From an uncultured Candidatus Saccharibacteria bacterium (lineage in GTDB: Bacteria; Patescibacteriota; Saccharimonadia; Saccharimonadales; UBA10212), in assembly GCA_964448095.1 (NCBI GenBank), contig CAYUUT010000005.1, forward strand, positions 3,306-67,305: DNA of 64,000 nucleotides. The letters run 5' to 3'. The number at the start of each line of letters is the position of its first letter. The stretch's first letter is position 1. Below, one piece after another: positions 3,184 through 26,241 of this stretch. A program made the position numbers and the translations under genes. Under the pieces are notes generated by a model. The model did not search any database. It had not been told where the DNA came from and saw only the letters and a program-made list of their open reading frames with translations.

Positions 3184-3205
3184 TTTACCGAACCTGAGAA
3201 TGAGC

Positions 3206-3214
3206 TGATATAAT
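3206..3214 (+). promoter_or_regulatory. extended -10 element TGaTATAAT
   Basis: tgatataat ends 25 nt upstream of the ATG at 3240. The identical 9-mer recurs at 7561..7569. Confidence 0.4.
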
Positions 3215-3239
3215 TTGACCGTTAGTCAAATTAGTTATT

Positions 3240-5825: not shown

Positions 5826-5849
5826 GTGCGGTGGCCGAAGCCACCGCAC
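5826..5849. terminator. GC-rich hairpin between convergent genes
   Basis: gtgcggtggc-cgaa-gccaccgcac forms a perfect 10-bp stem between 3240..5804 (+) and 5874..6302 (-). Confidence 0.6.
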
Positions 5850-5873
5850 ACCCCCGATCGCTCTACGGCCCGA

Positions 5874-6302: not shown

Positions 6303-6445
6303 GGTGCCATCTCCTCTCGGATACCCCAGGGTCCCCTATGGACTCCGGCGGATTAGATATAATCTATAATATTTGTAATTAATTGGCAACATTTAATTGT
6401 ACTTAAGCTTGCAAATCCAGAACTTTAGGCTAATCTGTTGAACAG

Positions 6446-10275: not shown

Positions 10276-10335
10276 ATGAACTCCTTCCTTTGGTCTCGGC
10301 CCAGCCGCCATGAGTTGCGCTGAGCTGAATAAGTT

Positions 10336-11337: not shown

Positions 11338-11372
11338 TCGATTTTCCTCATTTTTGTTTCCATCTTAAGTTC

Positions 11373-11401
11373 ATAATAAGAAGCTTAAGCCTAATGCGCA
11401 A
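11373..11401 (-). promoter_or_regulatory. sigma70-type promoter for 10336..11337
   Basis: Minus strand reads TTGCGC-17nt-TATTAT. Confidence 0.4.
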
Positions 11402-11536
11402 GCCCAAAATTCAATAAAGCTAATATATTTGCCGAACTTGGATTTTAGTTGTAATGTTGGCATGAGTCTTTGAGCGACAACTTTGAGAGGTGACGCTTAG
11501 ACTAGGTCTTCTCTTTCCGACTACAAGGGGGCGCTT

Positions 11537-11965
11537 GTGAAGAAGTTCTATGTCCAGATGCTCCATCTGCGCAGACAGCACTTCGAGACTCGAAGAGTCG
11601 CAAAGGCCTTGTTGGTCGCGGTTCCTACAATCGCGATTGGCCTCTGGCTGCAGCACTTCGACGTTTCGCGGCTTGGTCTGGATCCAGTCTGGGCCTACAG
11701 GGTCAACTGGCCAGTCATCACCCTCCTGTGCTTCATCCTCAACCGTGTTTTTACGTGGGGAGACAGGAAGAACGCCAGTAAGTTCAAGTGGGTGTTGATT
11801 TCGGCGCTGCACAGTGCTGTTAGCCAAGGCGTATATCCTCACTTGGTGCACGCTGGCATCAATTACCTTGTGGCCAATATGGCGTTGTTGGCGTTGAGCC
11901 CGATTATCTTCGTGTTCAACAATCTCATCACCTTTCGAAAGGAAAAGGAGACCACTAAGCCTTGA
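11537..11965 (+). CDS. GtrA-family membrane protein
   Basis: GTG start after AAGGGGG. Four hydrophobic segments. FILNRVFTWGDR matches the GtrA-like signature. Confidence 0.6.
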   Translation: MKKFYVQMLHLRRQHFETRRVAKALLVAVPTIAIGLWLQHFDVSRLGLDPVWAYRVNWPVITLLCFILNRVFTWGDRKNASKFKWVLISALHSAVSQGVYPHLVHAGINYLVANMALLALSPIIFVFNNLITFRKEKETTKP

Positions 11966-12000
11966 GCCTCAGATGCATCGCTGCATCTGAGGCTCAAGGC
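11959..12000. terminator. very strong bidirectional hairpin between GtrA-like gene and ftsK
   Basis: gccttgagcctcagatgca-tcgc-tgcatctgaggctcaaggc forms a 19-bp perfect stem. Confidence 0.75.
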
Positions 12001-12023
12001 GCAACCTAGTTTATAATTTAGTT

Positions 12024-14237
12024 TTATTCATCGGGCATGTCGTCGTAGACGTCGGCCTGATCAGCATCGTTGGCCGCAACTTCAGCCGGTTCGGCAAAAA
12101 CCTCATCAACACTATTAACTAGCACGTCGCGTGGCTTGGCGCCATCGGCCGGGCCAATAATTCCCTGCTCTTCCATCATGTCCATTAAGCGCGAAGCCCG
12201 GCCGTAGCCGATCCGCAGCTTGCGCTGCAGCAGCGAAGTGCTGGCTCTACGGTTATCAATCACCACCCGCACGGCATCCTTCCACATATCATCATCACCA
12301 TCATCATGACCATCGGTTCCAGCTATAATACTGCCCCGGCCGGATAATTGTACGGGTTGGCTGATCACTTCATCATCGTACTGCGGTGGCCGCTGGCTGC
12401 GCAAAAAGTCAGTTAGCTTATTAGTCTCATCGCTGGTTATTAGCGCGCCCTGGATGCGGACCGGCCGATTCATATCAGTAGTTTTGTAAAGCATGTCGCC
12501 CCTGCCCAGCAATTTGTCGGCGCCGGGCTGGTCGATAATAATCCGGCTGTTCACCTGGTCCTGAACGGCAAAGGCAATGCGCGCCGGTACGTTGGCTTTA
12601 ATAATGCCGGTGACAATATTGGCGTCCGGCCGCTGAGTGGCAATTACCAAATGGATGCCGGCCGCCCGAGCCTTTTGGGCGATGCGGGCAATTAGGGCTT
12701 CCACGTCGCGGCTGGCAACCATCATCAGGTCGGCCAACTCGTCAATTACTATGATGACGTAGGGCATTCCCTCTTCTTTTTTCAGCTTGTTATAACTTTG
12801 GATATCGCGTTGCTTAATCTCGGCGAAAGCTTTCAGACGGCGCTCCATCTCGGCCACCGCCCACTTTAGCGCGCTGATGCACTTTTCCGGTTCGCTAATA
12901 ACCGGTGCTAGCAGATGAGGAATATCTTCGTAAGGCGCCATTTCCACGTGTTTTGGGTCGACTAGGATTAGTTTAATATCGCTGGGCGAGTTGCGGTACA
13001 GCAAGCTGGCCAATAAGGTGTTAATCATTACCGATTTACCGGATTTGGTCTGGCCGGCAATCAAAAGGTGTGGCATCTCTTCCAGGTCAGCCATGACTGG
13101 TGCGCCGGCAATGTCCTTACCAACCACAAAGTTGAGGTGCCCTTGGGTCTCGGACCACTCCGGACTGGTAAAAAGCCCACGGATAGTGACAGTTGCGCCA
13201 CGGACATTTGGTACTTCAACGCCCACTGAACGAGTGCCGGGAATCGGCGCTTCCATGCGAATACTGTGGGCAGCTAAATCCAGCGCCAGGTTGCTGTCCA
13301 GGCTGGTCAGCTTGGTTAGTTTTACGCCGGACGGTGGCTTAAGCGTATATTGGGTGACTCGCGGTCCAACATTAGCGCCCTCCACTTCGACATCAATATT
13401 AAAGTTGGCGAAGGTTTCTTTGATGATCTCAGCATTGCCCTGGACGTTGCCGGCATCGGCTTTATCTTGTTTGTCGCTGAGTAGCTCCAGCGATGGGAAT
13501 TGCCAGTCCGGGTCGCTGGCGGTGGTTAAAGCAGCATGACTTCCAGCTGCTGGTGCCAGTTTTTCGGCGGTTTGCCGCGCGGCACTCAGCCGCGCGGCAT
13601 TGTGTTCCACCGGAACTCCCTCACGCAGCTGAAAGCCGGGAGCCATCTTGCCCTTTAAGGCTGCTAAATCTTCTTCACCTTCCGGCTGCTTACCCTTGAA
13701 TAGGCCGGATAGTTTTAGCAGGGTTTGCGGGTCGATACCAAAAGTGAACATCACGGCAAAGATTGTCAGGATGATAAATACCAACGAAGCCAAAAAGCGC
13801 CCCAGCCCCGTCGCCAATAAGCCGCCCAGGCTTTTGCCGATTTCGCCGCCGTGGCCGCCCACCGTGGCGCCGGTCGCGGCGTCGACATGTAGAAACATAG
13901 TGTGCAGCCAACTTGCCGAGAACACCAGCAAACAGATGGTACCGGCCAGTTTCGCCAGTGGAATCTGCTGATCCTCGCTGACAAATTTCAGAATGCCAAG
14001 ATAAACCAGCGCGAAAGGCACCAGCACACTGGCCGTGCCAAAAGCCCACCACACGCCGTTCCAAAGATCATGCGGCAAAGGTGCGTTTATAAAGAAACCA
14101 AAACCGATAATAATACCGGCGATTATCAGACTAACTGCGCCCGCACCGCGCCAAAAACTGGCCGATTTCTTGCCTTCGTCTTTAGCGTCTTTTTTTGCCG
14201 GCCGTCCCGGTTTACGTTTTTTATTAGCCATTAACAA
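12024..14237 (-). CDS. ftsK: DNA translocase FtsK/SpoIIIE
   Basis: N-terminal TM helices, Walker A GQTKSGKSV, VIIVIDELADLM, and a C-terminal gamma-like winged helix (LLQRKLRIGYGRASRLMD). An ATG at 14231 is an alternative start. Confidence 0.9.
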   Translation of the reverse strand: MLMANKKRKPGRPAKKDAKDEGKKSASFWRGAGAVSLIIAGIIIGFGFFINAPLPHDLWNGVWWAFGTASVLVPFALVYLGILKFVSEDQQIPLAKLAGTICLLVFSASWLHTMFLHVDAATGATVGGHGGEIGKSLGGLLATGLGRFLASLVFIILTIFAVMFTFGIDPQTLLKLSGLFKGKQPEGEEDLAALKGKMAPGFQLREGVPVEHNAARLSAARQTAEKLAPAAGSHAALTTASDPDWQFPSLELLSDKQDKADAGNVQGNAEIIKETFANFNIDVEVEGANVGPRVTQYTLKPPSGVKLTKLTSLDSNLALDLAAHSIRMEAPIPGTRSVGVEVPNVRGATVTIRGLFTSPEWSETQGHLNFVVGKDIAGAPVMADLEEMPHLLIAGQTKSGKSVMINTLLASLLYRNSPSDIKLILVDPKHVEMAPYEDIPHLLAPVISEPEKCISALKWAVAEMERRLKAFAEIKQRDIQSYNKLKKEEGMPYVIIVIDELADLMMVASRDVEALIARIAQKARAAGIHLVIATQRPDANIVTGIIKANVPARIAFAVQDQVNSRIIIDQPGADKLLGRGDMLYKTTDMNRPVRIQGALITSDETNKLTDFLRSQRPPQYDDEVISQPVQLSGRGSIIAGTDGHDDGDDDMWKDAVRVVIDNRRASTSLLQRKLRIGYGRASRLMDMMEEQGIIGPADGAKPRDVLVNSVDEVFAEPAEVAANDADQADVYDDMPDE

Positions 14238-14279
14238 ACTATATTCTACTCTGTTTAACCCATGAGGGCGAGTGTTGTA

Positions 14280-14309
14280 ATTATAACATGTTTATGCTAA
14301 ACGTGTCAA
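14280..14309 (-). promoter_or_regulatory. consensus-like promoter upstream of ftsK
   Basis: Minus strand reads TTGACA-18nt-TATAAT, with TGt immediately before the -10. Confidence 0.5.
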
Positions 14310-14315
14310 GCTAAA

Positions 14316-14720
14316 CTACGCGGCTTTGTCTATTTGTCTGTAACGAGTTTGGCGTTTAATTGCATCGAACACCAGAGTTGGACCCACTAAACCCTCTCGG
14401 CGCGTTCTCTCGACATGTTGAAGTGCCCAAGCCCTGTCTTCGTCTCCTAGCTCGTTCAGCTCGTCTAGAGCTTGGTCCCACAGAGTATCTTCCACCACGG
14501 CTTCAAGGCCCGGGGTAACACTAGGATGAAAATATGCGTTCTTGGCGGGTTCATTTCCTGAGATTAACGGCCTCGCGCCATTGGCATCAATAGGTACAAC
14601 TTCAAGCTCGCCGCCTATAAGATCCCGTCCTATACCTAAAATAAGGTCATTCTCTGTGGTCCGGTTGCCATAATAGTCCAAACGCCGCTGACCACCTGAG
14701 TGTGAAGAAAGTTCGCTCAT
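14316..14720 (-). CDS. hypothetical protein
   Basis: 134 aa, SD AAGGGAttaaaatcATG. No family recognised. Confidence 0.5.
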   Translation of the reverse strand: MSELSSHSGGQRRLDYYGNRTTENDLILGIGRDLIGGELEVVPIDANGARPLISGNEPAKNAYFHPSVTPGLEAVVEDTLWDQALDELNELGDEDRAWALQHVERTRREGLVGPTLVFDAIKRQTRYRQIDKAA

Positions 14721-14810
14721 GATTTTAATCCCTTATTTATTTCCAGTCTTTATTTTGACTGACCTAGTCTGGTTATACGCCCAGCCAAATAACTTGTCAA
14801 ACCAGCAACG

Positions 14811-15980
14811 CTATGCCGCCCTCTCAAAGACCAGCCACTCACCCTCTTGCATAACACCTTGGCTTTTTATACGTATTGCCGGCTGGTTAGTTACTCTGCC
14901 TATCTGCCGGGCTTCTATACCAAATTCCGCTGCGACTTCAATCATTCTGTCGGGTTCAGCGGTAATTCCAACCAGACCAGTGCCCATATTGATAGTAGAG
15001 TAGATCTCTTCATCAGATACTTGGGCTATCCTTTGGACCTCGTTCATTATCGGCAGCGGTTCTAAGGGATTATCAATAAGAGCTCCATAACCCGATGGCT
15101 CAAGTGCGCGCCCTAGCTTACCCGGCTGGCCGCCTCCGGTAATATGCGCGAAAGCGGCGACATCAGCCCTGGGCGCTCGATTAATATCGTAACCGCCGGT
15201 TAGTTCGACCATAAGTTTTGTGTAAATTCTGGATGGATAGTTAACTTGCTCACCTAAAGGTATATTGCCGAGTTTTCTAAGCTTTTTATCGTGCCATTTG
15301 GCGCCGTAGCGTTCAGCTAGCGCACTGCGAACCAGACTTAAGCCGTTGGAGCGGAAACCATCTTCTTTGAACCCCACCAAAGCTTGTCCCGGCTCGACCT
15401 TTAAACCTGTTAAGAAGCGGCTGCGATGAGTCAGCGAAGTCACAGCGACGGACCAATTATAATTGAAGCGGCCGTATCCGTTTACCCGATTGCCAAGTTC
15501 GGCCACTTCTCCCCTGAGCATCACGATTCCGGCGGCCTCACAGGCCTCTATAAGCCCGGAGGCAAGTTCGCCTATGGCTTTATAGGTTTCGGGCTTATCC
15601 CTCAATTTACGAACGTCAATAACATTAGAGCCGAAGATTGGCTCAAAACCTTCCGCGGCCGGGTCGTCAGCGCCCATTGCTATAAGATTGAAGGCTGAGG
15701 TAGCGTGATCTCCGATTCTCTCTGAGATTTCGATTTTGGTGCCGATACCATCAGTTGGTTGGTCCAGCATAAGGTTTTCAAGATCATGACCCTCCAAAGC
15801 TGTTAACGAGATTGCCCGGGCGCTGGTGAAAGAATCACTAACGGCTTCTACCTGCCCAAACTTCCCTTTACGGTTAACCCAAGTTTGCCTTGAGGCATCT
15901 GCCATCGTCTTGGAGAAGTAGTCGCCAAGCGACAGGTTGACACCGGACTGCTCATAAGTAAGAGGCTTACGGTTGGCCAT
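14811..15980 (-). CDS. purM: phosphoribosylformylglycinamidine cyclo-ligase (AIR synthetase)
   Basis: LTYEQSGVNLSLGD, DGIGTK and a PurM-type C-terminal domain, within the pur operon. Confidence 0.8.
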   Translation of the reverse strand: MANRKPLTYEQSGVNLSLGDYFSKTMADASRQTWVNRKGKFGQVEAVSDSFTSARAISLTALEGHDLENLMLDQPTDGIGTKIEISERIGDHATSAFNLIAMGADDPAAEGFEPIFGSNVIDVRKLRDKPETYKAIGELASGLIEACEAAGIVMLRGEVAELGNRVNGYGRFNYNWSVAVTSLTHRSRFLTGLKVEPGQALVGFKEDGFRSNGLSLVRSALAERYGAKWHDKKLRKLGNIPLGEQVNYPSRIYTKLMVELTGGYDINRAPRADVAAFAHITGGGQPGKLGRALEPSGYGALIDNPLEPLPIMNEVQRIAQVSDEEIYSTINMGTGLVGITAEPDRMIEVAAEFGIEARQIGRVTNQPAIRIKSQGVMQEGEWLVFERAA

Positions 15981-16766
15981 TTATACCTCCTTGGTGTAAT
16001 TTACGATACCATTGAAAATCACAGCTGCGGCCGACCGTGCTGCGACTGTTCGGGTTCTATTGGGGTGAAAGGCCGACACTGAGCGTTCCGGATGCGGCAT
16101 CATTCCGACAATCAAACCACTGGGGTCGCAGACCCCCGCAATGTTGCCAGCCGAACCGCTGGGATTATAGGGGTATACAGCCAGTCCGCCGGGATTTTTA
16201 GGGTCAATATAACGAAACAACAACTGGCCGTTTTGTTCCATGTCTTGCATAACAGCTGGTTCGGCAACGAACTGGCCTTCGCCGTGGGCAGTCTGTATGG
16301 GAAAACTGGCTTCCCCAAAATCTTCCGGTTGAAAAAATGGCGATACCGATGGTTGCGGCTCCAGCTCTACCCAACGGCAAACAAAGTGCCCAATCTGATT
16401 ATCGGCTAAAGCGGCCGTCTGCCGACCTAATTCTCCACCAGGTATTAAGCCTGAGCGTACTTGGACTTGGAAGCCATTGCAAATACCGATTATCGGTTTA
16501 GCAGCATCAATGAATCGCTGTAGGTCGTCAGATAAGCGGGTGGTCAGCTCATTAGCCAGAATTTTTCCGGCTGCTACGTCGTCGCCATAAGAAAAGCCGC
16601 CGGGCAATCCCAATCCCTGGAAGTTGTCCAGACTTACATCGCCAGCGCGCAGTTGGTTGACGTGTACGATACTTGCGCTGGCACCCGAAACCTCGAAAGC
16701 GTGAGCCAGCTCCATATCACAATTGGTCCCGTCGGTCTTTAGAACGCAGATTTCCGGCCTAATCAT
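15981..16766 (-). CDS. purQ: FGAM synthase, glutaminase subunit
   Basis: GICNGFQ nucleophile elbow and HPERS motif. 4-nt overlap with the upstream purL segment. Confidence 0.85.
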   Translation of the reverse strand: MIRPEICVLKTDGTNCDMELAHAFEVSGASASIVHVNQLRAGDVSLDNFQGLGLPGGFSYGDDVAAGKILANELTTRLSDDLQRFIDAAKPIIGICNGFQVQVRSGLIPGGELGRQTAALADNQIGHFVCRWVELEPQPSVSPFFQPEDFGEASFPIQTAHGEGQFVAEPAVMQDMEQNGQLLFRYIDPKNPGGLAVYPYNPSGSAGNIAGVCDPSGLIVGMMPHPERSVSAFHPNRTRTVAARSAAAVIFNGIVNYTKEV

Positions 16767-17755
16767 TGGAATATCTCCTGAAGCGGTTTTTGCCAGGCAT
16801 TTTTAAGCGCCTCGGTAGACGCATAAAACAGCGGTTTATCGTGTGAGACGCTAATTAGATTGGTGTCGTTAGCTTTTTTATATGTGGTTCTGCCCACTAC
16901 TGCGTGTGGTACACCGGCGAATAGCTCTTCGGCCTGGGCCTCGTCGCCTACTTCAATGACAAAGCAACCGGCGGTTTCGCTGAACAGCATAACCTCTGGA
17001 TCCTGGTCGGCCGGCAGTTTTATGTCAGCGCCGCAATCGCCGCCAAAACACATTTCGCCGATGGCTGTAATCATGCCTCCCTCGCTAATATCGTGACAGG
17101 CCAGTACCTTACCGCTGGCTATACTGGTCTGGACTATCTCCAAAATCTTTGGCAGATTTTCGGTGTCCACCAGCGGTACATGGGCGCTACTGCCCTCAGC
17201 CACATCGTAATAGGCCGAACCGCCCATGTTCTGGCTGAGTTCACCAACTAGGACTAGAGTCGACCCCGGTTTTTTAATATCTGTAGTCATGGTTTTCTCC
17301 ACGTCCGGGATTCGGCCAAACATCGAGGCGCAGTAAACTGGTGGAATTTCTATGACTTCGACCACTTCGTCTTGTTCATTCCGGCGTCGATAGGTCGAAG
17401 ATAAGCTGTCTTTGCCGGAAATTACCGGCACTTCAAGCAGGTGCATCATGTCGACCGAAGCATCGACTGAAAGGTCTAGTGAGCCCATGGCCTGTGAGTC
17501 TGGGAACGGCCAAATAAAATTGCCCACTAGGGCCGCTTCGGCAATATTACCCCCGGCTGATACATAATTGGCCGCCGCCTCGGCAATCGCCCAGCGTGTG
17601 CCTTCGTAAGGGTCTAGGCGGTTCAAGATGGGATTCATACCATGGGACTGGACCACCCCATAAGGCTTATCAAGTAACGGCCGAACCACTAAGGCGTCGT
17701 TTGGACCCTGCTGGGTCGTGCCGCCGAACCGCCGCACGACAATGGCCCCCAGCAC
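16763..17755 (-). CDS. purL: FGAM synthase PurL, C-terminal half (same frame as 17816..19621, separated by one TAA)
   Basis: GPNDALVVRPL..GVVQSHGMNP and later AIR-synthase-like repeats. The 60 nt between the two ORFs are open in the same frame. Confidence 0.75.
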   Translation of the reverse strand: MLGAIVVRRFGGTTQQGPNDALVVRPLLDKPYGVVQSHGMNPILNRLDPYEGTRWAIAEAAANYVSAGGNIAEAALVGNFIWPFPDSQAMGSLDLSVDASVDMMHLLEVPVISGKDSLSSTYRRRNEQDEVVEVIEIPPVYCASMFGRIPDVEKTMTTDIKKPGSTLVLVGELSQNMGGSAYYDVAEGSSAHVPLVDTENLPKILEIVQTSIASGKVLACHDISEGGMITAIGEMCFGGDCGADIKLPADQDPEVMLFSETAGCFVIEVGDEAQAEELFAGVPHAVVGRTTYKKANDTNLISVSHDKPLFYASTEALKNAWQKPLQEIFQ

Positions 17756-17815
17756 GCCCTGGTGAAACGGGCGGGCAAATGATTCTGTTGATGAAACGGT
17801 TCCGGGGGTAAAAAA

Positions 17816-19621
17816 TTAAATGACTCGCCAATACCACTCTATAGCGCTAGTTGGGCGCGGCGGCTTCTTCTCTCCCACTAATGGCCGTTCCCAGTGAGCC
17901 GTCATGACTCGCTGTGGTAAGCCGTTCTTTAGAAATTCATAATCCAGTTCTGCCACATTTTGCTGACCATAATTAACGGTCAGGCTATGACTGCCGTCAA
18001 ACTCGCCTAAAACTGCTGCCTCAACATTATATTTAGCGCAAGTCGCGATAAAACTATCGACGTTCTCTGGCGCTATGGCAGCCACCATCCTTTCCTGTGA
18101 TTCGCTCATCCAGATTTCCCAGGGTGCTAAACCGGGGTACTTTAGCGGCACTTTGGCGAGGTCGACAGTTGCGCCGATATCCTCGCCTAACTCGCCGATG
18201 GCCGATGAAAATCCTGCCGCTCCACAATCGGTTATGGCTCGGATATAGTCTAAATCTCTAGCTTCTAACAATGCGTCAAACATGCGTTTCTCTTCTATGG
18301 CATTGCCAATTTGCACGGCGCTGGAGTTAATTTGCGCTGTGTTGTCGGTCATTTCTCCGGAGCTGAAAGTAGCGCCATGGATGCCGTCACGGCCAGTGCG
18401 GCCGCCAATTGCCACCACTAAATCACCTAGTTGCGGCTCGCCTTTTCGGGCCCGAATTTCCGGCATGATGCCGTAAGCGCCCACGATAACAGATGGCTTA
18501 GCTCGGAAATCTTCATGATAATGAACCGAGCCGTTGGCAGTTGGGATACCCATACGGTTGCCGTAGTCGCACACGCCTTGAACGACTCTCCTCTGCAAAT
18601 AATCAGGGCGAAGTGTTCCTGGTGGTAATTTGCTAGGATCGAGGTCCGGCGGAGCGAAACAGAACATGTCAGTCGAGATAATATTTTTAGCGCCCTGGCC
18701 GGTTCCGGCAATATCGCGAAAGACCCCGCCGCTGCCAGTCATCGCGCCACCGTAAGGCTCGACTGCTGAAGGGCTATTGTGGGTTTCAACTTTTCCGCAA
18801 ATCGCTTGGCCGTCATAAAAACGTATGACTCCGGAATTATCACCGAACGCCGAAATTACCAGGTCGCCAAAATGCTCCTTAGCGGCTTCTCTGATTCGAG
18901 TAAACAGAGGTGGCTTTACAACCCCGTCCACTACCACTTCACCATTGAAGGTCTTGTGGCCGCAGTGTTCACTCCACCGGCCGGCGATAATCTCCAGTTC
19001 GCAGTCAGTAGGTTCTCTGCCCTGGCTGCGAAAATATTCTTGAATAACTTTCATTTCTTGTAAGTCCAAAAAAAGTTTCCCGGCTGATAGTTCATTCAAT
19101 TGTTCAGGCATAGCGTTAATTATCGGCACGGTCTTGACTGGCCCGACCTGGCCTTCAAAACGAAGGCTTTCAGGCGGTTCGGTAACCACATGTTGGACAA
19201 TTTTGTTGACCAATAAACCGCCAACAATCGCATCGACTTGTGCTGGACTAATGTTGCCTTCAAATGTATAGCGAGTTGAAGAATCAGCGGCAGTTAAATC
19301 GATGCCTATATCGGCAGCCGCTTTCAGGATAGAAGCGGCTGCCGGATTCATCACGCCGGGTTGATAAGCAACTTCTACGGTGTCAGGGTCATCATTTGGC
19401 TTGGTGTCTAGCTTGAAACTCTCAGTCACAGGATCGCTCAATAATTTGACCGCTAAAGCCTCTGCTTCTGACTCAGTTGTCCCCTCCAGGCGGTAGACCT
19501 TGGCTGTGCGGACTGCGGTTAAGTTATCTATCCCAAGAGTCCGCCGGGCTTCTTGAGCAACTCCCCGACCTGCGGGGTCGTCGTCTGTGGACGTTACTAT
19601 AACTTCATGAATTTTGCTCAC
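17816..19621 (-). CDS. purL: tandem PurS-like domains fused to PurL N-terminal half
   Basis: Two PurS-like repeats sit upstream of the PurL core, which contains SEHCGHKTF, GRTGRDGIHGATFSS and SESQERM. The ORF ends at TAA 17816..17818. Confidence 0.8.
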   Translation of the reverse strand: MSKIHEVIVTSTDDDPAGRGVAQEARRTLGIDNLTAVRTAKVYRLEGTTESEAEALAVKLLSDPVTESFKLDTKPNDDPDTVEVAYQPGVMNPAAASILKAAADIGIDLTAADSSTRYTFEGNISPAQVDAIVGGLLVNKIVQHVVTEPPESLRFEGQVGPVKTVPIINAMPEQLNELSAGKLFLDLQEMKVIQEYFRSQGREPTDCELEIIAGRWSEHCGHKTFNGEVVVDGVVKPPLFTRIREAAKEHFGDLVISAFGDNSGVIRFYDGQAICGKVETHNSPSAVEPYGGAMTGSGGVFRDIAGTGQGAKNIISTDMFCFAPPDLDPSKLPPGTLRPDYLQRRVVQGVCDYGNRMGIPTANGSVHYHEDFRAKPSVIVGAYGIMPEIRARKGEPQLGDLVVAIGGRTGRDGIHGATFSSGEMTDNTAQINSSAVQIGNAIEEKRMFDALLEARDLDYIRAITDCGAAGFSSAIGELGEDIGATVDLAKVPLKYPGLAPWEIWMSESQERMVAAIAPENVDSFIATCAKYNVEAAVLGEFDGSHSLTVNYGQQNVAELDYEFLKNGLPQRVMTAHWERPLVGEKKPPRPTSAIEWYWRVI

Positions 19622-20309
19622 GCCACTCCGCCTGATCTTTTAAGAACTGATCGATATCTGTGGGCAATTCCCGCTTTTCTACTAGCTGGGTTCGGGCAAA
19701 AAGTGCTTGCGGGCTGTCGTCCGGCTCCACGGGTACGCGGTGCTTGGCTATAATCGGGCCTTGGTCCACGCCAGCCGAAACCAGATGTACTGTGTGGGCA
19801 GAATACTTACGGCCTTTCGCTAAAACTTTCTTTGCGGCTTCAACGCCGGCAGTATCAGTCGTCAAAGGCAGTGGTCCGGGATGAGTGTTACTCATTCGGC
19901 CTTGGTAGATAGAGTCGTAAACAGGCTGGAATCCGTACTCGTCCAATAAATCGCCCGTCACAATCTTCATGTAGCCCATGAGTGCCACATGGTCAATTCC
20001 GCGCGCCGCTAGAGCTTCACAGATTTTTTCAGATTCCCACGGAGTTTGCCCTCTTGTGGCTTCCTCGCCCCTCCTAAGGGGGTATTGCCTACCGCTTATG
20101 TATAGAGTTTCTGCTCCCAACCTGTGGGCTTTGTTCAAGAATTTTACTCGACCAAATACTCCTGCGTCTGGATTATTACTGATAACCAGTGGCACCTCTA
20201 GGTCGGCCCTTTTGGATACGGTCGCCAGGATGAATGCCTCGGCGGTCGTACCGCCTCCCGAGGCTAGAATTGCCACCTGCGGCTTATGCAGCTCGCCCAT
20301 AACCCGCAA
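19605..20309 (-). CDS. purN: phosphoribosylglycinamide formyltransferase-like
   Basis: VAILASGGGTTAEAF and NTHPGPLP formyltransferase motifs, within the pur operon. Confidence 0.7.
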   Translation of the reverse strand: MRVMGELHKPQVAILASGGGTTAEAFILATVSKRADLEVPLVISNNPDAGVFGRVKFLNKAHRLGAETLYISGRQYPLRRGEEATRGQTPWESEKICEALAARGIDHVALMGYMKIVTGDLLDEYGFQPVYDSIYQGRMSNTHPGPLPLTTDTAGVEAAKKVLAKGRKYSAHTVHLVSAGVDQGPIIAKHRVPVEPDDSPQALFARTQLVEKRELPTDIDQFLKDQAEWREQNS

Positions 20310-21759
20310 GTTGTTGTCTTAGCTCGCGCCATTTGGCCACTTCGTTGTGGGTTTGCTCAACTGTTAGGCCAAGGTAGGCATGTTCAGGGTGCAAAACAAT
20401 CTCTTGTTCTGCCTCTGTCATCAGTGGCCAATAGGTACTTGCTATTTCTTCGTCGTCGATAACCGCCTCTCCTAAGTTTTGATCTTCATCCAGAGCTTTT
20501 TGAACAATTCTCTTAGCGGCATTATGCGCGGCGGGATGACCGTATTGACGCAAGTAAACTTGCAAGGGTTCGCTACCAATTGCGCCCTTTTGGGCTCCAA
20601 GATTTCTATCCAGATTGACGGTATCCACCTCGAGCTTAGGCAATATTCGGTTAAGAGTTTTGGCCATATGCGCCACTTCTGCCAGCATGATTCCATGAAA
20701 CCTGCCGGCCGAAGAATCTCGAAGATCACGTTGGTGCTCGCTGGTCAGATTTAGGTAGGAGGTCAGGACCTGTGGTATCACCACTCTCTCAAAACCAGCG
20801 ACTTGCTCAAAGGTTATGGGATTTCGCTTTTGCGGCATTGCCGATGAGCCTGTAGCGTGTTCTCTGTCGAAAGGCTCACCAACTTCACCAATTTCTGTGC
20901 GTTGGAGGTTCCGCATATCGTTAGCTATTTGAGCCATAATGCCCGCGGTGATGCCAAGTTCGGCTAGTAAGCGGGTGGTGTTTTCTGCAGGCACTATCTG
21001 CGTGGCGTGCTCGCAAGGCTCAAGTCCTAGCTTTGCTAGTAAAGCTGCCTCAAAAACTATTGGATTATCCATTATTAATGAGGAGGCGTTGTATCCGCCA
21101 ACGGCACCAGAAAATTTACCCTGCAAGCCGAAAGTGTGCCGATCTAATTCCGTGGCCGATTCACCTAAACGGCCTAAGTAGCGTGAGACTCCGAAGCCGA
21201 AAGTGATTGGTACCGCGTGCTGTCCGTGAGTTCGGCCTATCTGGGGCGTATCTGCGTACCTTTCCGCTAAATCGGCTAAATTGTCGCCAAGCTTTACAAG
21301 CCTTGGCATTACCAGCCCGTTCATCGCTTCGCGGTATTGCAAGGCGTTGGCTGTAGAAACTATGTCATACGAGGTCGCCGTTGCGTGGACCCAAGGCTTA
21401 GCCTCATCGCTAATTTGTGCCGATATGGCTTCGGTTAAAGCTTTGATGTCGTGGCGTGTCCCGCGGCCATCGAATTCTCCCCGTCCGTATTCACGGTCGT
21501 CTACTTCCTTGGCGCTAACATTTGCGCAAGCCGCTTCAATTTCCATGGCGACTTCTCTGGAGCAAATATCAAAATCGGCCAGAGTGTGAGCCAGTGCGGC
21601 TTCGACATAAGCCTGTAAAGCGATTCGGGTTTCGCCCCCCAGATACTTTTCGGCCTCAGGATCTCTGTAGCGGCCGTCCATAGGATCAATATCACCATAA
21701 TAATCAGAACGAGATTCTGCTGCTGGGGGAATAAAGGCACCTAAATTGTGTTCAGCCAT
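20284..21759 (-). CDS. purB: adenylosuccinate lyase
   Basis: Lyase-1 signature GSSAMPQKRNP, TSYD and RTHGQHA motifs, within the pur operon. Confidence 0.85.
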   Translation of the reverse strand: MAEHNLGAFIPPAAESRSDYYGDIDPMDGRYRDPEAEKYLGGETRIALQAYVEAALAHTLADFDICSREVAMEIEAACANVSAKEVDDREYGRGEFDGRGTRHDIKALTEAISAQISDEAKPWVHATATSYDIVSTANALQYREAMNGLVMPRLVKLGDNLADLAERYADTPQIGRTHGQHAVPITFGFGVSRYLGRLGESATELDRHTFGLQGKFSGAVGGYNASSLIMDNPIVFEAALLAKLGLEPCEHATQIVPAENTTRLLAELGITAGIMAQIANDMRNLQRTEIGEVGEPFDREHATGSSAMPQKRNPITFEQVAGFERVVIPQVLTSYLNLTSEHQRDLRDSSAGRFHGIMLAEVAHMAKTLNRILPKLEVDTVNLDRNLGAQKGAIGSEPLQVYLRQYGHPAAHNAAKRIVQKALDEDQNLGEAVIDDEEIASTYWPLMTEAEQEIVLHPEHAYLGLTVEQTHNEVAKWRELRQQLAGYGRAA

Positions 21760-21772
21760 GCCCGCCTAACTT

Positions 21773-21801
21773 TTATAATATTTATAGATTAACTTGTACA
21801 A
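21773..21801 (-). promoter_or_regulatory. candidate purB promoter
   Basis: Minus strand reads TTGTAC-17nt-TTATAA, ending 13 nt before the purB ATG. Confidence 0.4.
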
Positions 21802-21803
21802 AT

Positions 21804-21838
21804 AACACCTGCAAGCATAAGCAGATTTAATAATAAGT
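21804..21838. repeat. left copy of the sequence bracketing the purE-purC cassette
   Basis: AACACC-TGCAAGCATAAGC-AGATTTA-ATAATAAGT matches 23405..23476 apart from two blocks present only in the right copy. Confidence 0.6.
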
Positions 21839-21842
21839 CTTG

Positions 21843-21880
21843 CCGGGGGTGTGTAGCGTATTCCGCATACACACCCCCGG
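21843..21880 (-). terminator. GC-rich hairpin downstream of purC
   Basis: ccgggggtgtgta ... tacacacccccgg forms a 13-bp stem, plus an inner gcg/cgc pairing. Confidence 0.6.
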
Positions 21881-21898
21881 TATCGTCCTCCACTTCCC

Positions 21899-22783
21899 CT
21901 ACCAGACGAGCGGGTCGCTGCCCGTCAGACGCCCAGCGATGTTGCCGTACGTGGCTCGGGTGCGGTCGATGAGCTCGCCGGGCATCTCCGGCGCCGGCGG
22001 CTTCTTGTCCCAGCCGAGGCTTTCGTAGTAGTCGCGAACCAGCTGCTTGTCCATCGACTTGGGCGGTTTGCCCACTTCGTGGGTCTCAACTGCGACATAC
22101 CGCGATGAATCCGGTGTGAGCACCTCGTCGCCGAGCGTCAGCTCGCCCGTCTCCGGGTCGAGGCCGAACTCGAACTTGGTGTCCACCAGGATGATGCCCT
22201 GCTCCAGCGCGTAGGCTGCGCCGGCGACGTAGAGCTCCAGCGCTCGATCGCGTACTCGCTCGGCGAGCACCTGGTCTCCCAGAATCCGCACCATGCCCTC
22301 GAAGTCGATGTTCTCGTCGTGCCCGACTTCGGCCTTGGTCGAAGGCGTGAACAGCGGCTCCGGGAACTTCTCCATCTCCTGCATGTCGGCCGGTAGTTCG
22401 ATGCCGCTGACCATGCCGGTTCGCTGGTAGTCCTTCCAGCCCGAGCCGGTGAGGTAGCCGCGGACGATGGCCTCGACCGGCAGCATGTTCAGCCGCCGGA
22501 CGACCATCGTTCTTGGGGCGTCCTCGGAATCGAGCCAGCCGGGCGTGTGCCAGCCGTCGGGCGAGATCAGGTGATGCGGCATGACCTCGCCGACTGGCGT
22601 CTGCGTCAGCCAGTGCTGGGTCATGTGCGTCAGCACGATGCCCTTGCCGGGAACCGGCTGGGGTAGTACGACGTCGAACACGCTGATGCGGTCGCTAGCG
22701 ATCACGACCAACATGTCCGGCTCGTCACCGGGGTAGGTATCGCGCACCTTCCCCCGATGAAGCATTTCCGGCTTAGCCGTCAT
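21899..22783 (-). CDS. purC: SAICAR synthetase (GC-rich, long form)
   Basis: LHRGKVRDTY, ASDRISVFD, LVDTKFEFG and TPDSSRY motifs. Markedly higher GC than purB or purH by eye. Confidence 0.85.
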   Translation of the reverse strand: MTAKPEMLHRGKVRDTYPGDEPDMLVVIASDRISVFDVVLPQPVPGKGIVLTHMTQHWLTQTPVGEVMPHHLISPDGWHTPGWLDSEDAPRTMVVRRLNMLPVEAIVRGYLTGSGWKDYQRTGMVSGIELPADMQEMEKFPEPLFTPSTKAEVGHDENIDFEGMVRILGDQVLAERVRDRALELYVAGAAYALEQGIILVDTKFEFGLDPETGELTLGDEVLTPDSSRYVAVETHEVGKPPKSMDKQLVRDYYESLGWDKKPPAPEMPGELIDRTRATYGNIAGRLTGSDPLVW

Positions 22784-22792
22784 GTGCTCCTC

Positions 22793-23266
22793 CTAGAGCT
22801 CGATGTTGAAGTTGGCCGGCTTGGCGTTGAGATCCAGGTAGGCCCGAAGCCGCCTGGCGACTTCGTGGTCGGTTGCCGCCAGTATCTGTCCGGCGGCGAT
22901 GGCGGCGTTCTTGAGGCCTGCCTTGCCTACTCCCGCCGTCAGGACTGGTACGCCCGGCGGCATGTACAGGCAGGAGTCGATGCCGTTCTCGTCGAGCGGC
23001 ACTCCGATGACCGGCTTGCTCATGCCCGTGTTGCCGGCGATAGCGCCCGGCAGGGCGGTGGCCATTCCGGCGACGGCGATGAAGACCAAGGTTCCGTCTT
23101 CGCACGACGCTTTGCAGAATGCCGCGAGCTCGTCGGGGTTGCGGTGAGCCGAGCAGATTGAAACCGCCCGGTCCGCCCCCAGTTGATCGAGAATGTCCAG
23201 CATTCCCGATTCCTTGACGACACCCTCGTCGCTCTTGCTTCCTATTACTACCTGTACCTTTGGCAC
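22793..23266 (-). CDS. purE: N5-CAIR mutase (class I PurE-like, SAHR motif)
   Basis: VQVVIGSKSD, SAHRNP and GVPVLTAGVG motifs. GTG start after GGAAGGA. The purE stop is followed by GAGGAGcacATG of purC. Confidence 0.85.
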   Translation of the reverse strand: MPKVQVVIGSKSDEGVVKESGMLDILDQLGADRAVSICSAHRNPDELAAFCKASCEDGTLVFIAVAGMATALPGAIAGNTGMSKPVIGVPLDENGIDSCLYMPPGVPVLTAGVGKAGLKNAAIAAGQILAATDHEVARRLRAYLDLNAKPANFNIEL

Positions 23267-23325
23267 GGTGTGTCCTTCCTGTCTGGATGGATGCGCGCTT
23301 ACTCGCGTCTTTCGTCAAACTGTTT

Positions 23326-23434
23326 CGATAGGGTTCCTCCCATCGTAGTGAAGGTCCGATTACAAGCGGTTAAACCTGCATAGCAAAATCATCACACGGG
23401 GTAAAACACTTTGCAAGCATGAGCGTTACCGAGA
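23326..23434 (+). promoter_or_regulatory. ykkC-yxkD-family riboswitch-like motif (guanidine-I / ppGpp / PRPP class) upstream of purH
   Basis: In order and with plausible spacing: TAGGGTTCC (23329..37), GGTCCGA (23353..59) and ACACGG (23394..99). These are followed by GGTAA...TTACC (23400..04 pairs with 23426..30) and GAGA. Matches my recollection of the ykkC consensus blocks CUAGGGUUCC / GGUCCGAGAG / ACACGG..hairpin..GGAGA. Confidence 0.45.
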
Positions 23435-23476
23435 TTTATAGGTTTGCAATACCTAGCCCAGTCATTAATAATAAGT
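23405..23476. repeat. right copy of the sequence bracketing the purE-purC cassette
   Basis: AACACTTTGCAAGCATGAGC[gttaccg]AGATTTA[taggtttgcaatacctagcccagtcatta]ATAATAAGT. The bracketed blocks are absent from the left copy. Confidence 0.6.
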
Positions 23477-23518
23477 TTTATAAAACAGCTGGGTGGTGCA
23501 GCCTAAGGAGGTAGTGCC

Positions 23519-25141
23519 ATGGCCGATAAAGAAAATGCTCTAATCTCGGTTTATAACAAAAATGGACTGGAAGAATTTGCCGATGGCTTGGTGGCTCAAG
23601 GCTTTAATATCTACGCTTCCGGCGGCACAGCCAGAAGAATTAGCGAAGCCGATATCCCGGTCACCGACGTAGCGGAATTAATAGGCGGTGGTTCTATTCT
23701 GGGTCACCGAGTCGTCACTTTATCGCGTGAAGTCCATGCCGCTCTCTTGGCCCAAAAGACACCTGAAGACCTTGAGGAGCTGGAACGTTTAGGGATACCT
23801 TTGATAGATCTGGTCGCCGTAGATATGTATCCTTTGCGTGATGAGTTAGCCAAGCCCGACAGCACAGAGGAAAGTGTCACGGAACAGACTGATATCGGTG
23901 GCCCAACTATGTTACGGGCCGCCGCCAAAGGTCGCCGGATTGTCTTATCAAGAGTTGAGCAGCGAGCCGAAGTTCTGGAGTGGCTCAAAAATGGCCGGCC
24001 CGACGAGGAAGAATTCCGCCGCCGTTTAGCAGGTATCGCTGAATACGAAGTCGCGGCCTATGTACTGGAGTCGGCCAGGTATTTGGGAGGCCCGGCCGTT
24101 TTTGGCTTTATGGGCCAAAGGGTCTCGACGCCGCTTTATGGTGAAAATCCATGGCAAGGCAACGCTGGAATCTATATGGACAGAAACAGCACTAACCCCT
24201 TGGCCTTCCACCGTTTTGAACAGCATGGCGGCATTGAAACCAGCTACAACAACGTGGTTGAATTTGCTGAGCGGATGACCCAGACCGTAGCCCACATTGC
24301 GGCTGGTTTTGAAAAGAATTTTGGCGAAGTGCCAGCTTTGGCGATTGGCGTTAAGCACGGCAATCCGTGTGGTGCCGCATACGCCAACACCCCCCATGAA
24401 GCCATTAGAAAGATGATTGAGGGTGACGAGCGGGCAATTTTTGGCGGTTCTATTATGTTGAATTTTGAACTGGACGGGGAGCTAGCGGAACTACTGGTGA
24501 GCCATGGCATGCCGAGTGACCAGAAACGTTTGTTGGATATCGTCATAGCCGCCGGCGCCGATGAAGACACGATTGATATTTTGCAGCGCAAAACCGGCAA
24601 ACTAAGACTTTTGACTAATCCGGCGCTAGCAGAGCTAGGCGTCGATTCGTTGGACACAAAACCACGATTTAGGTATATACCGGACGGGGCCGCGGTTCAG
24701 GATAATTACACCTACGTTCCAAACTTAAAGCGCGATGCAGCAATATTGGCCGGCGGCTGGGTAAGTCCTGAGCAAGAGCGCGATTTAGTTTTGGCCTGGG
24801 GGGTTGGCTCAACTAGCAATAGCAATACCATAACCTTAGTTAAAGACGGCAAGTTAATAGGTAACGGCGTAGGCCAACAGGATAGAGTCGGAGCAGCCGA
24901 ATTAGCCATAAAGCGAGCTAAAGATGCAGGACATAATGTGGAAGGAGCTTGCGCCTACAGTGATAGTTTCTTCCCTTATCCGGATGGGCCTCTAATCCTC
25001 GCGGAAGCTGGTATCGGAATAATTCTGTCCAGCAGCGGCTCTGTAAAAGACTCGGAGATAGCCGAGGCTTTAGCAGCCAAAAAATTGCAGAGCTTCTTAA
25101 CCCTCCCCGACAAAGAAGCCCGCGGCTTCTTCGGCCACTAG
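23519..25141 (+). CDS. purH: bifunctional AICAR transformylase / IMP cyclohydrolase
   Basis: SD AAGGAGGtagtgccATG. MGS-like N-terminus ALISVYNKNGLEEFA..ASGGTA and an AICARFT domain (GVKHGNPCGAA, GQQDRV). Confidence 0.9.
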   Translation: MADKENALISVYNKNGLEEFADGLVAQGFNIYASGGTARRISEADIPVTDVAELIGGGSILGHRVVTLSREVHAALLAQKTPEDLEELERLGIPLIDLVAVDMYPLRDELAKPDSTEESVTEQTDIGGPTMLRAAAKGRRIVLSRVEQRAEVLEWLKNGRPDEEEFRRRLAGIAEYEVAAYVLESARYLGGPAVFGFMGQRVSTPLYGENPWQGNAGIYMDRNSTNPLAFHRFEQHGGIETSYNNVVEFAERMTQTVAHIAAGFEKNFGEVPALAIGVKHGNPCGAAYANTPHEAIRKMIEGDERAIFGGSIMLNFELDGELAELLVSHGMPSDQKRLLDIVIAAGADEDTIDILQRKTGKLRLLTNPALAELGVDSLDTKPRFRYIPDGAAVQDNYTYVPNLKRDAAILAGGWVSPEQERDLVLAWGVGSTSNSNTITLVKDGKLIGNGVGQQDRVGAAELAIKRAKDAGHNVEGACAYSDSFFPYPDGPLILAEAGIGIILSSSGSVKDSEIAEALAAKKLQSFLTLPDKEARGFFGH

Positions 25142-25233: not shown

Positions 25234-26241
25234 CTAATGGGTGTTCGCCAAATCAACCATTTCTTGAATTGTTGCCGGTTGCAGGCTGTCCAATATTTGC
25301 TTTAGCTGATCTTTATCAAATATCTGCTGGCTCGAGAAACTGATTAAAGTCGAGCCAATCTTACAGAAACCGTATGTTGATGATACTGGCTGATCACCTG
25401 CTCCTACCTGTGCGTAGTAAACCTGGCAGCCACTTGAGGATTTACCAATATCTGTGCAGGTAAAGTTGTAGTAACCTGAATCCGGGTCCGGGTAGCCGGC
25501 AGTCGGACTCATACACCAATTGGGTGGATTATAATTTGCGGGAGCTTTAAATTCATTGAGCTTGCTATAATCATCGAGCCTAATCTCGTAAAACGGCTGA
25601 GTAGGCTCATATTTATTAAAAAAAGTAGATGCAACAGCATAACCGGGTTTATAAAGCTGGGTATTTAAGGACTTAAGCTGGGTGGCTAAACGGTGTTTAT
25701 CACCAAGATTATCCAGGGTCTTAATAAAAGGCGGCATGATGAGGATAAAAATAAATATTTCAATAGCGGCTAGACCAATTCCTGAAGTCCAGTCACTGAA
25801 TCTAAGTTTTTGGTCAAACAGCTTGATTTCAATTGGCAGGATGATGACGGCAAGAACAGCAGTTATGGCGAAGCCGAATAATTCTTGCCTGCCTCCGGAA
25901 TTAAACGATTCGGGTCTGAGCTGATAGCTAAGTGTGGCTCCAATAACATAGGCCGGGACAGTCGTAAACAGAAAAGCATATATTGCCAAAGCTCTTCTAC
26001 TGGTTACCAGCCATAGCATCAAGAATATTCCTGAAACTATGTAGGCTATGAATCCATCTATTATTGAGCTAAGAACGTCCCCTATACCACAAGCTATGCC
26101 GGGCCCTTCACAGGCAGCGGGATTATTAATCGAGTAGGATGCGACCGCAAAGGCAATCGCAAAAGCTGCCACGGCAGTAATAGCTGAGCCAATCAGCCAG
26201 TATTTTTTGAGCTGCCCATTGTTGGGCAGTTCGGTCTTCAT
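25234..26241 (-). CDS. multi-pass membrane protein with a Cys-containing extracytoplasmic C-terminal domain (hypothetical)
   Basis: 335 aa. About 5-6 hydrophobic helices, then a soluble domain (NPPNWCMSPTAGYPDPDSGYYNFTCTDIGKSSSGCQVYY). Lies between the two 80-nt repeats. Confidence 0.6.
   Translation of the reverse strand: MKTELPNNGQLKKYWLIGSAITAVAAFAIAFAVASYSINNPAACEGPGIACGIGDVLSSIIDGFIAYIVSGIFLMLWLVTSRRALAIYAFLFTTVPAYVIGATLSYQLRPESFNSGGRQELFGFAITAVLAVIILPIEIKLFDQKLRFSDWTSGIGLAAIEIFIFILIMPPFIKTLDNLGDKHRLATQLKSLNTQLYKPGYAVASTFFNKYEPTQPFYEIRLDDYSKLNEFKAPANYNPPNWCMSPTAGYPDPDSGYYNFTCTDIGKSSSGCQVYYAQVGAGDQPVSSTYGFCKIGSTLISFSSQQIFDKDQLKQILDSLQPATIQEMVDLANTH

Follow-up and report, generated by a model that had tools for sequence, protein, structure and literature searches.

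A GC-rich purE-purC unit in the purine locus of a Saccharimonadales bacterium, probably an old clade-wide module under native pur regulation

Gene content and composition of the pur locus

The window analysed here, a whole stretch of 64,000 nucleotides (64 kb) with an average GC content of 50.8%, carries eight pur genes together at one locus, two of which, purE and purC, form a GC-rich unit that is the subject of this study (Table 1). The genes were identified by NCBIfam as purM, purQ, purL (with a PurS-like N-terminus), purN, purB, purC, purE and purH, and the locus is flanked by genes for TruB, S15, PNPase, UDG, RNase J, FtsK, S6, SSB and S18. Judging from its protein matches, the window organism is a member of the Saccharimonadales (Saccharibacteria, Candidate Phyla Radiation (CPR)): PurH had matches at 53-80% identity, and the named ones among the best 120 listed were all 'Candidatus Saccharibacteria' or 'Saccharimonadales'. 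An earlier interpretation made from the DNA letters alone (the sequence-only reading) had guessed as much of the organism, and had explained purE-purC as a cassette inserted into the native locus from a high-GC donor, for example an actinobacterial host, with duplication of the target region.

The compositional contrast is sharp. The GC content at third codon positions (GC3) was 0.864 in purC (GC 0.651) and 0.791 in purE (GC 0.633), compared with 0.47-0.57 in purB, purN, purL, purQ, purM and purH. Relative to 71 non-overlapping open reading frames (ORFs) of the window (median GC3 0.547, standard deviation (SD) 0.084), purC is offset by about +3.7 SD and purE by about +2.8 SD, and in 100-bp steps GC climbs at about 21900 and drops at about 23300. 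The codon usage of purE-purC correlated at 0.94 with Solirubrobacterales purC and at 0.95 with the other GC-rich Saccharibacteria purC genes, versus 0.56 with native genes, so the earlier description of the pair as far richer in GC than its pur neighbours and compositionally foreign stands. Since GC3 of the GroEL, RpoD, S15 and PNPase genes is just 0.55-0.66, ordinary translational selection is an unlikely cause of the GC-rich composition.

The purC product is, by a full-length match over a curated cut-off, a SAICAR synthetase (PF01259, NCBIfam PRK13961 family): it scored 353.1 bits against PRK13961 (cut-off 251, residues 6-289) and 203.3 bits against TIGR00081 (cut-off 189.9). The native pur proteins, in contrast, are all under their NCBIfam cut-offs. 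PurE matched Pfam AIRC (3.7e-36, 124 bits, cut-off 30) and reached 126.8 bits against TIGR01162 (class I), under the 149.6 cut-off; its best matches in the Protein Data Bank were class I N5-CAIR mutases (E 4e-25), and its relatives carry the NCBI name 'AIR carboxylase family protein' only. Class I PurE proteins are marked by the SAHR motif and the histidine of the AAHLPG loop, as in E. coli PurE. In an alignment to 3opq, the window protein keeps SAHR (SAHRNP), and GMATALPG replaces GGAAHLPG, with the loop histidine missing. The window ORFs that were scanned with NCBIfam or Pfam included no purK, purF or purD.

Two further contigs, one from ENA MEGAHIT (L001, 55 kb) and one from Logan (L002), code for precisely the same PurC protein, and each matches the window at 100% identity along 1.86 kb that cover purB-purC-purE-purH and both junctions. 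L001 has no mismatch to the window from purB to purH and 82 elsewhere in 20.9 kb; it is therefore not simply the same assembly but a different strain or assembly. Outside the pur genes, the FtsK region (12429-14728) differs between the window and L001 by scattered changes (about 1.8%), many at multiple-of-three spacing, and a dense patch of differences lies at 11899-11981. The differences over 11899-14728 suggest strain-level recombination tracts.

Table 1. Features of the pur locus in the window, in order of position
Feature	Position	Strand	Description
purM	14811-15980	-	NCBIfam
purQ	15981-16766	-	NCBIfam
purL, two ORFs	16763-17755 and 17816-19621	-	PurS-like N-terminus on the upstream ORF 17816-19621
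purN	19605-20309	-	NCBIfam
purB	20284-21759	-	native composition, GC3 0.47; first gene of the downstream pur operon
pur box 2	21809..21822	-	GCTTATGCTTGCA, then G; with predicted -35 TTGCAG of the purB-purN-purL-purQ-purM promoter
AT-rich motif TTAATAATAAGT, copy 1	21827..21838	.	just upstream of pur box 2
GC-rich hairpin	21843..21880	-	closes purE-purC; 13-bp stem, 12-nt loop
purC	21899-22783	-	294-aa SAICAR synthetase, GC3 0.86; in the monophyletic Saccharibacteria PurC clade
purE-purC junction	22784..22792	-	GAGGAGCAC, carries the purC Shine-Dalgarno sequence
purE	22793-23266	-	157-aa PurE/AIR-carboxylase family protein, GC3 0.79
Shine-Dalgarno GGAAGGA of purE	23273..23279	-	6 nt before the GTG start (23264-23266)
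5' leader of the purE-purC unit	23310..23385	-	core CTTGTAATCGGACCTTCA at 23349-23366
Predicted -10 of the purE-purC promoter	23388..23393	-	GATGAT, preceded by TGT; 17 nt past the -35
pur box 1	23411..23424	-	GCTCATGCTTGCA, then A; with predicted -35 TTGCAA (23411-23416) of purE-purC
AT-rich motif TTAATAATAAGT, copy 2	23465..23476	+	overlaps predicted purH -10 AATAAT (23467-23472)
purH	23519-25141	+	native composition, GC3 0.52; divergent transcription

A PurC clade at one locus in related genomes

Identity to the window PurC falls through a series of 87, 77, 74, 70 and so on to 59%, then drops to about 57% (Solirubrobacteraceae) and levels off at 53-57%. The group at 59-87% identity was monophyletic in 100 of 100 bootstraps of a neighbour-joining (NJ) tree, and two of its members are named Saccharibacteria or Saccharimonadales by NCBI. 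We read the genomic contexts of 12 clade members, the window included, from about 41 clade clusters (Table 2), and all 12 lie in sequence of 47-56% GC with CPR-type neighbours. The purC genes themselves have a GC3 of 0.74-0.88 in eight lineages, 0.67 in a ninth and 0.39-0.48 in three nested lineages. Because the low-GC copies are nested among the GC-rich ones, the GC-rich state is likely ancestral for the clade.

Table 2. The 12 PurC clade members read in context (W, window; arrows, direction of transcription)
Member	PurC identity to W	purC GC3	Background GC3	Arrangement
W		0.86	0.55	
L217	87%	0.83		leader-purC-hairpin; hairpin identical to the window's
L003	74%	0.80	0.45	purH<- ->purC, then purB
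L092	69%	0.48	0.40	purH<- ->purC-purB-purN-purL-purQ-purM
L005	67%	0.88	0.5	purE-purC
L215	67%	0.74	0.65	purB<- ->purE-purC
L213	66%	0.88	0.45	purE-purC adjoining purB
L007	64%	0.79	0.5	purE-purC-purB
L216	64%	0.39	0.42	RNaseJ-purC-purB-purM-FtsK (9919-13494)
L089	61%	0.39	0.55	RNaseJ-purC-FtsK (9934-10946)
L090	60%	0.67	0.52	purE-purC
L091	59%	0.76	0.63	purE-purC

Clade purC lies at the same locus in L217, L003, L092, L216 and L089, and beside purB in L007, L213 and L215. The closest relative, L217 (90% nucleotide identity), keeps the leader core, the Shine-Dalgarno sequence and the hairpin. The backbone of L089 and L216 is that of the window (TruB-S15-PNPase-UDG-RNaseJ ... FtsK, with RNase J about 80% identical), indicating an old, conserved site for the whole pur cluster, parts of which some lineages have lost. 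With purC alone left in L089 and purC-purB-purM in L216, the purine pathway seems to have been dismantled step by step at a single site.

In addition, PurC divergence tracks that of its native pur neighbours: between the window and L092 the identities are 69% for PurC, 67% for PurB and 72.5% for PurH, and between the window and L003 they are 74% for PurC and 76% for PurH. No empty site, with purB and purH directly adjacent or divergent, was seen in the 12 contexts, and same-clade purC genes lie beside purH or purB, or between RNase J and FtsK, in relatives across the whole 59-87% range. The proposed insertion into a native locus, for which relatives with directly divergent purB and purH had been suggested as a check, is thus not supported, and any transfer would be old and clade-wide rather than a recent private event.

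Two wider scans added little to this sample. A metagenome scan used a back-translated pattern, MDKQ..VR..7..W[DN][KR]..P.P, which separates the clade cleanly at the protein level; among the matches listed, almost all were generic PurC proteins at 39-51%, and the sole clade member (L125) is the L091 contig. A scan of a genome collection was swamped by the universal VDTKFEFG motif and returned named outgroups and no Saccharibacteria among the matches listed.

The history of purE is more tangled. The PurE proteins beside clade purC share just 38-60% identity among themselves and fall into no common cluster, and a PurE phylogeny was rejected as too short and scattered to interpret. In L217 and L003, the leader goes directly into the purC Shine-Dalgarno sequence with no purE (L217 1-40; L003 2559-2600), whereas the window and L007 have an extra conserved stretch and purE between leader and purC (window 23267-23366). 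With purE missing from L217 and L003 and found in both the window and the distant L007, purE must have been deleted more than once or regained in the window lineage.

Two other features of the locus were noted. The window purL is split by an in-frame TAA at 17816-17818, and the gene is intact (952 aa) in L001 and L002; a patch at 17730-17821 has 24 mismatches to L001 within 90 bp, 23 of them transversions, and substitutes for the conserved peptide HDVLTHGNVASKEAIVRQYDHG. This pattern does not look like ordinary divergence but like a local error in sequence or assembly, or else an unusual hypermutated stretch. Between purH and RNase J lies a minus-strand ORF (25234-26241, 335 aa, GC 0.44) with no Pfam or NCBIfam match; it is also found in L001, and nothing comparable separates RNase J from purC in L089 and L216.

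Promoter boxes, leader and hairpin of the unit

Repeated motifs do exist on both sides of the unit, as the sequence-only reading had noted. TGCAAGCAT(A/G)AGC matches the degenerate pattern TGCAAGCATRAGC without mismatch at 21810 and 23412 alone in the 64 kb, and the 12-mer TTAATAATAAGT occurs at 21827 and 23465 alone in the window, with 0.43 occurrences expected. A gapped alignment of both flanks was weakly above shuffles, 6 of 2000 of which reached its score, so the repeat consists of two or three short collinear motifs rather than a long duplicated segment.

In the direction of the pur genes, the first motif contains the 13-mer GCTYATGCTTGCA, here called the pur box. Across some 220 kb from Saccharibacteria (the window and 11 loci), the 13-mer with at most one mismatch occurs eight times, against a chance expectation of about 0.5 by our own calculation, and all eight occurrences, in five genomes, are directly upstream of a pur unit: purE and purB in the window, purC and purB in L003, purE and purB in L007, and purC in L092 and L089. 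The box thus precedes pur units even where the gene order differs from that of the window. Degenerate boxes (CTTATGCTT...) precede purE in L213, L215 and L091, and in L215 two of them face outwards, towards purB and towards purE.

The pur box terminates in TTGCA(A/G), and 17 nt downstream the sequence GTGTGAT(G/T)AT is common to the window, L007 and L003. At this -10 region, GTGTGATGAT / GTGTGATTAT are conserved at equal spacing in the same three. Based on this arrangement, we infer that the box contributes the -35 hexamer, in combination with an extended -10, of a purE-purC promoter; a consensus promoter scan made no call at the corresponding -10 (23388..23393). Box 2 would serve purB in the same way, consistent with its upstream position in L003 and L007, and the first copy of TTAATAATAAGT may be an UP-like element. 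The consensus scan predicted a purH promoter with a -35 TTGCAA at 23444-23449, a 17-nt spacer and a -10 AATAAT ending at 23472, and the second copy of TTAATAATAAGT overlaps this -10. Since the boxes stand upstream of pur units, other gene orders included, and the 12-mer falls on the predicted purH -10, the bracketing repeats are best read as the promoters of purE-purC, of the purB operon and of purH, and the duplication of a target region is not supported.

The pur box would accordingly be a putative regulon-specific promoter or operator box, specific to the pathway and conserved across species. Purine regulons with such boxes are known from E. coli (PurR box) and B. subtilis (PurBox). The box found here is like them in being a short conserved element before each pur unit, and differs from both in sequence and in overlapping a predicted -35. 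The L089 copy is palindromic (GCTTGCA-A-TGCAAGC). Literature searches found no report of the purE-purC module or of the pur-box motif, and we take the promoter motif to be previously undescribed.

Downstream of box 1, a leader of about 75 nt is nearly unchanged in the window, L007 (9385-9460), L003 (2525-2580) and L217 (1-20), while the proteins of these lineages are 54-87% identical. From its conservation and position, this leader could be a regulatory RNA or an operator overlapping the transcription start. It had no Rfam match at the gathering threshold, and a search of 21700-23600 against Rfam 15 at E<=10 gave chance-level hits within coding sequence alone and none in the leader. A consensus fold of three sequences consisted of a single small hairpin and offered no useful covariation. 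The leader resembles the purine-related riboswitches in Rfam (purine, ZTP, PRPP, xanthine, guanine-II) in being a conserved upstream element with a small conserved hairpin; unlike them, it matches no Rfam 15 family at E<=10, and its three to four sequences lend no covariation support. Matches of the leader core in viral contigs were also considered and rejected: all eight come from one unrelated phage coding sequence and represent a chance 18-mer match.

The remaining signals of the unit are present as described earlier: the GTG start after GGAAGGA, the tight junction (22784-22795, reading purE-TAG-GAGGAGCAC-ATG-purC) and the 13-bp hairpin. Its 13-nt arms (21843-21855 and 21868-21880) are 100% complementary (dG -33.6 kcal/mol, z -5.75). 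An identical hairpin follows purC in L217, and strong hairpins occupy the same position in L003 and L007; in our own alignment, two pairs of the L003 stem are changed on both sides relative to the window, and pairing is kept. The hairpin has no clean U-run after it, its tail being CAAGACUUAUUAUUAAAU, and the consensus scan called no terminator there. With its own start signal, junction and hairpin, purE-purC agrees with the earlier description of a self-contained transcription unit.

Further small GC-rich islands are present in the window, as had also been pointed out. A single-gene island at 5830-6350 carries a minus-strand ORF (5874-6302, 142 aa, GC 0.68, GC3 0.87) with no Pfam match, an AT-rich upstream region with TTGCAAGCTTAAGT and a strong GC hairpin after the gene (dG -39 kcal/mol, z -4.1), a build that resembles the purE-purC unit. 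A small GC-rich ORF at 1060-1338 (minus strand, 92 aa, GC 0.66, GC3 0.70), without a Pfam match, may be another foreign-type patch. L216 (background GC3 0.40) has GC-rich single genes as well, at 16912-18015 and 3007-3381 (GC3 0.86 and 0.78), so small GC-rich islands recur in the group.

Origin and persistence of the GC-rich codons

We consider it probable that purE-purC is an old, clade-wide GC-rich module under native pur regulation rather than a recent cassette insertion. On this account, purE-purC would be a working two-gene transcription unit of the Saccharimonadales pur locus, transcribed from the pur-box promoter (GCTCATGCTTGCA with -35 TTGCAA and an extended -10 17 nt later) through a conserved leader of about 125 nt, purE and purC to the GC-rich hairpin, which would end the unit. 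The second pur box would restart transcription for purB-N-L-Q-M, and purH would be read divergently from its own promoter. The two gene products would supply the steps from aminoimidazole ribonucleotide (AIR) to its carboxylated form (CAIR) and from CAIR to the succinocarboxamide (SAICAR) in the synthesis of inosine monophosphate (IMP). purC would have been acquired long ago from a high-GC bacterium, together with a purE of more tangled history, before the radiation of this Saccharibacteria group, and would then have come under native pur regulation.

A high-GC donor is plausible. Among the matches listed, the closest named outgroups are Solirubrobacterales (55-57% PurC identity) and Gammaproteobacteria (54-56%), and the best nucleotide matches of purC to outgroups are 69-73% over 500-800 nt. 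In the NJ tree, arbitrarily rooted, the PurC clade branches with a Proteobacteria-rich group and not with the Solirubrobacterales. The suggested actinobacterial host is not borne out as donor: the closest non-CPR PurC among the matches listed reaches just 53-57%, the tree does not put the clade inside Actinomycetota, and no recent foreign nucleotide patch was found. Recent gene conversion by outside donors was rejected on the last ground, as blastn found no patch above about 80% over 60 nt save one of 86% over 83 nt. By sliding-window affinity, PurC sub-clades share alternative motif states with Solirubrobacterales or Proteobacteria. Residues ~21-50 and ~241-280 have two such states that co-vary among sub-clades, one like Solirubrobacterales (STYDVVHPT..., VRDWASSTGW) and one like Proteobacteria (SVFDVVLPQP..., VRDYYESLGW); the two-state regions could reflect old recombination or coupled structural alternatives.

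Several points weigh against the preferred account. The PurC clade lies at much the same distance from Solirubrobacterales as from the Proteobacteria-rich group, so that no donor can be named, and the tree is crude besides being arbitrarily rooted, which leaves a purely vertical origin of purC some small probability. Just 12 of the roughly 41 clade clusters were placed in genomic context. The PurE proteins next to clade purC are not monophyletic, purE is missing from the closest relatives L217 and L003, and its history in this genome could include a later re-gain. Neutral amelioration should also have erased the GC3 excess of an old transfer, and a single transfer followed by drift fits poorly.

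This last point rests on four-fold sites of conserved residues, where we calculated residual identity, that is, identity above the composition-based expectation. For purC it was 0.21 between the window and L003 (95% bootstrap interval 0.09-0.32) and 0.20 between L213 and L007; for native genes it was 0.10-0.14 in the first pair and about 0 or below in the second. With residual identities this low, the synonymous sites of purC have almost fully turned over, yet GC at four-fold sites (GC4) stays at 0.77-0.89 in the GC-rich copies. In an F81 view, by our own calculation, composition relaxes as the square root of residual identity, so that an ancestor with 100% GC4 at the split of the window and L003 would leave at most about 0.76 in the window and about 0.69 in L003, compared with the observed 0.85 and 0.78. 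In addition, amino-acid composition has shifted towards moderate GC while the codons stay GC-rich, the reverse of the order expected under neutral amelioration. Polarising the differences between the window and L217 by the GC-rich outgroups gave 31 GC-to-AT versus 3 AT-to-GC changes at third positions, which we rejected as evidence because the outgroups are saturated and about 85% GC, biasing the inferred ancestor to GC. With four-fold sites nearly saturated and still GC-rich, either some active process would maintain the composition, or allele replacement out of a reservoir not yet seen would renew it.

We offer the first of these only tentatively: the composition of purC, and partly of purE, might be held in place over the long term inside Saccharimonadales of about 50% GC and not be a fading trace of transfer. 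Synonymous sites would then be under selection or subject to biased conversion, perhaps in connection with the uptake of high-GC host DNA, and purC would normalise only after losing the promoter, leader and hairpin and joining the native operon, as in L092, L216 and L089.

Renewal by serial allele replacement, in which the locus is old and each lineage's GC-rich coding sequence is recent, still ameliorating and drawn by homologous recombination from an unsampled GC-rich reservoir with the same PurC type (for example high-GC Saccharibacteria), seems to us unlikely. It would explain why GC4 exceeds the level expected from vertical descent and neutral decay, and by our own calculation an import at GC4 of about 0.91-0.99 just before the split of the window and L217 fits both copies. 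Transfer within the phylum seems to occur: the L089 purC (GC3 0.39) is richer in AT than the genome that carries it (0.55-0.59), suggesting a transfer between Saccharibacteria. Some Saccharibacteria are also GC-richer, L091 and L215 having a background GC3 of 0.63-0.68, and PurB and PurC rank relatives differently. However, none of the 12 contexts is GC-rich; the adjoining leader and promoter are native in composition and conserved together with the coding sequence, so that the end points of replacement would need to fall at the borders of the coding sequence each time; and the window, L003 and L092 come in the same order by PurC and by PurH identity.

It is highly unlikely that there was no transfer at all, with purC vertical in Saccharibacteria and its GC-rich codons the product of gene-specific selection, such as for mRNA stability or translation. 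A monophyletic clade on a long stem would fit this, as would the restriction of GC-richness to the coding sequence and hairpin next to an ordinary leader, and a GC1 and GC2 that are no more than slightly raised, with an amino-acid composition nearer to that of moderate-GC proteins than to that of the high-GC outgroups. Yet PurC would need stronger translational selection than GroEL, RpoD, S15 and PNPase, three lineages manage with a purC GC3 of 0.39-0.48, and PurC scores as a standard bacterial PurC next to highly divergent neighbours.

A recent two-gene cassette from a high-GC actinobacterial host, placed between the purB promoter and the purH leader with the target duplicated, we regard as extremely unlikely. 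The sharply bounded composition, the actinobacteria-like codon usage and the other GC-rich islands of the window speak for it, and so does the hairpin, since terminator hairpins without a U-tail are common in Actinomycetota. Against this, the module keeps its position in relatives whose PurC identity is as low as 59%, no non-CPR homologue among the matches listed exceeds 57% identity, and the supposedly duplicated motif stands upstream of pur units in genomes of other gene order. Nor did we find mobility genes or a tRNA at the purE-purC borders; pur genes alone flank the block, and the sole tRNA of the window is away from it, at 57188-57278. A chimeric assembly, with a high-GC fragment misjoined into a CPR contig, would produce the abrupt GC change, but we give it next to no credence, given identical junctions in three assemblies made with different software, one of them a different strain, and homologous junctions in L217, L003 and L007.

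The preferred account of an old module can be set beside two bodies of earlier work. As in the amelioration model for atypical acquired genes (Lawrence & Ochman 1997, as cited in PMC12455944), a sharply bounded GC-rich block with donor-type codons lies in a 51% GC genome, and L092, L089 and L216 show the expected fully ameliorated state. Unlike in that model, there are no mobility genes, tRNA target or true direct repeats, deeply divergent lineages have purC in common at a single locus, and a GC4 of about 0.8-0.9 is kept despite near-saturated four-fold sites, which is not predicted. Transfer of nucleotide-metabolism genes into Patescibacteria (PMC12455944) and remodelling of CPR proteomes by intra-CPR transfer and loss (PMC8406219) have been reported. 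The present locus is alike in that a CPR genome holds a nucleotide-biosynthesis gene of non-CPR character and in that L089 and L216 have lost the pur cluster piece by piece at the corresponding site. The difference is that those studies address recent transfers by nucleotide similarity, whereas no donor above 57% protein identity was found here among the matches listed.

Saccharibacteria are usually described as unable to make purines, and a well-studied soil Saccharibacterium is without the pathway from phosphoribosyl pyrophosphate (PRPP) to IMP (PMC6031116); the lineage described here has eight pur genes at one locus. The stepwise shrinkage of the pur cluster in its relatives provides a direct view of evolving biosynthetic dependence on a host. 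The pur-box promoter and leader are candidate regulatory elements in a phylum with almost no gene-regulation knowledge. If confirmed with full genomes, the lasting GC-richness of purC would challenge the routine dating of gene transfers by GC content, and would point to a force acting on the synonymous sites of single genes in these episymbionts.

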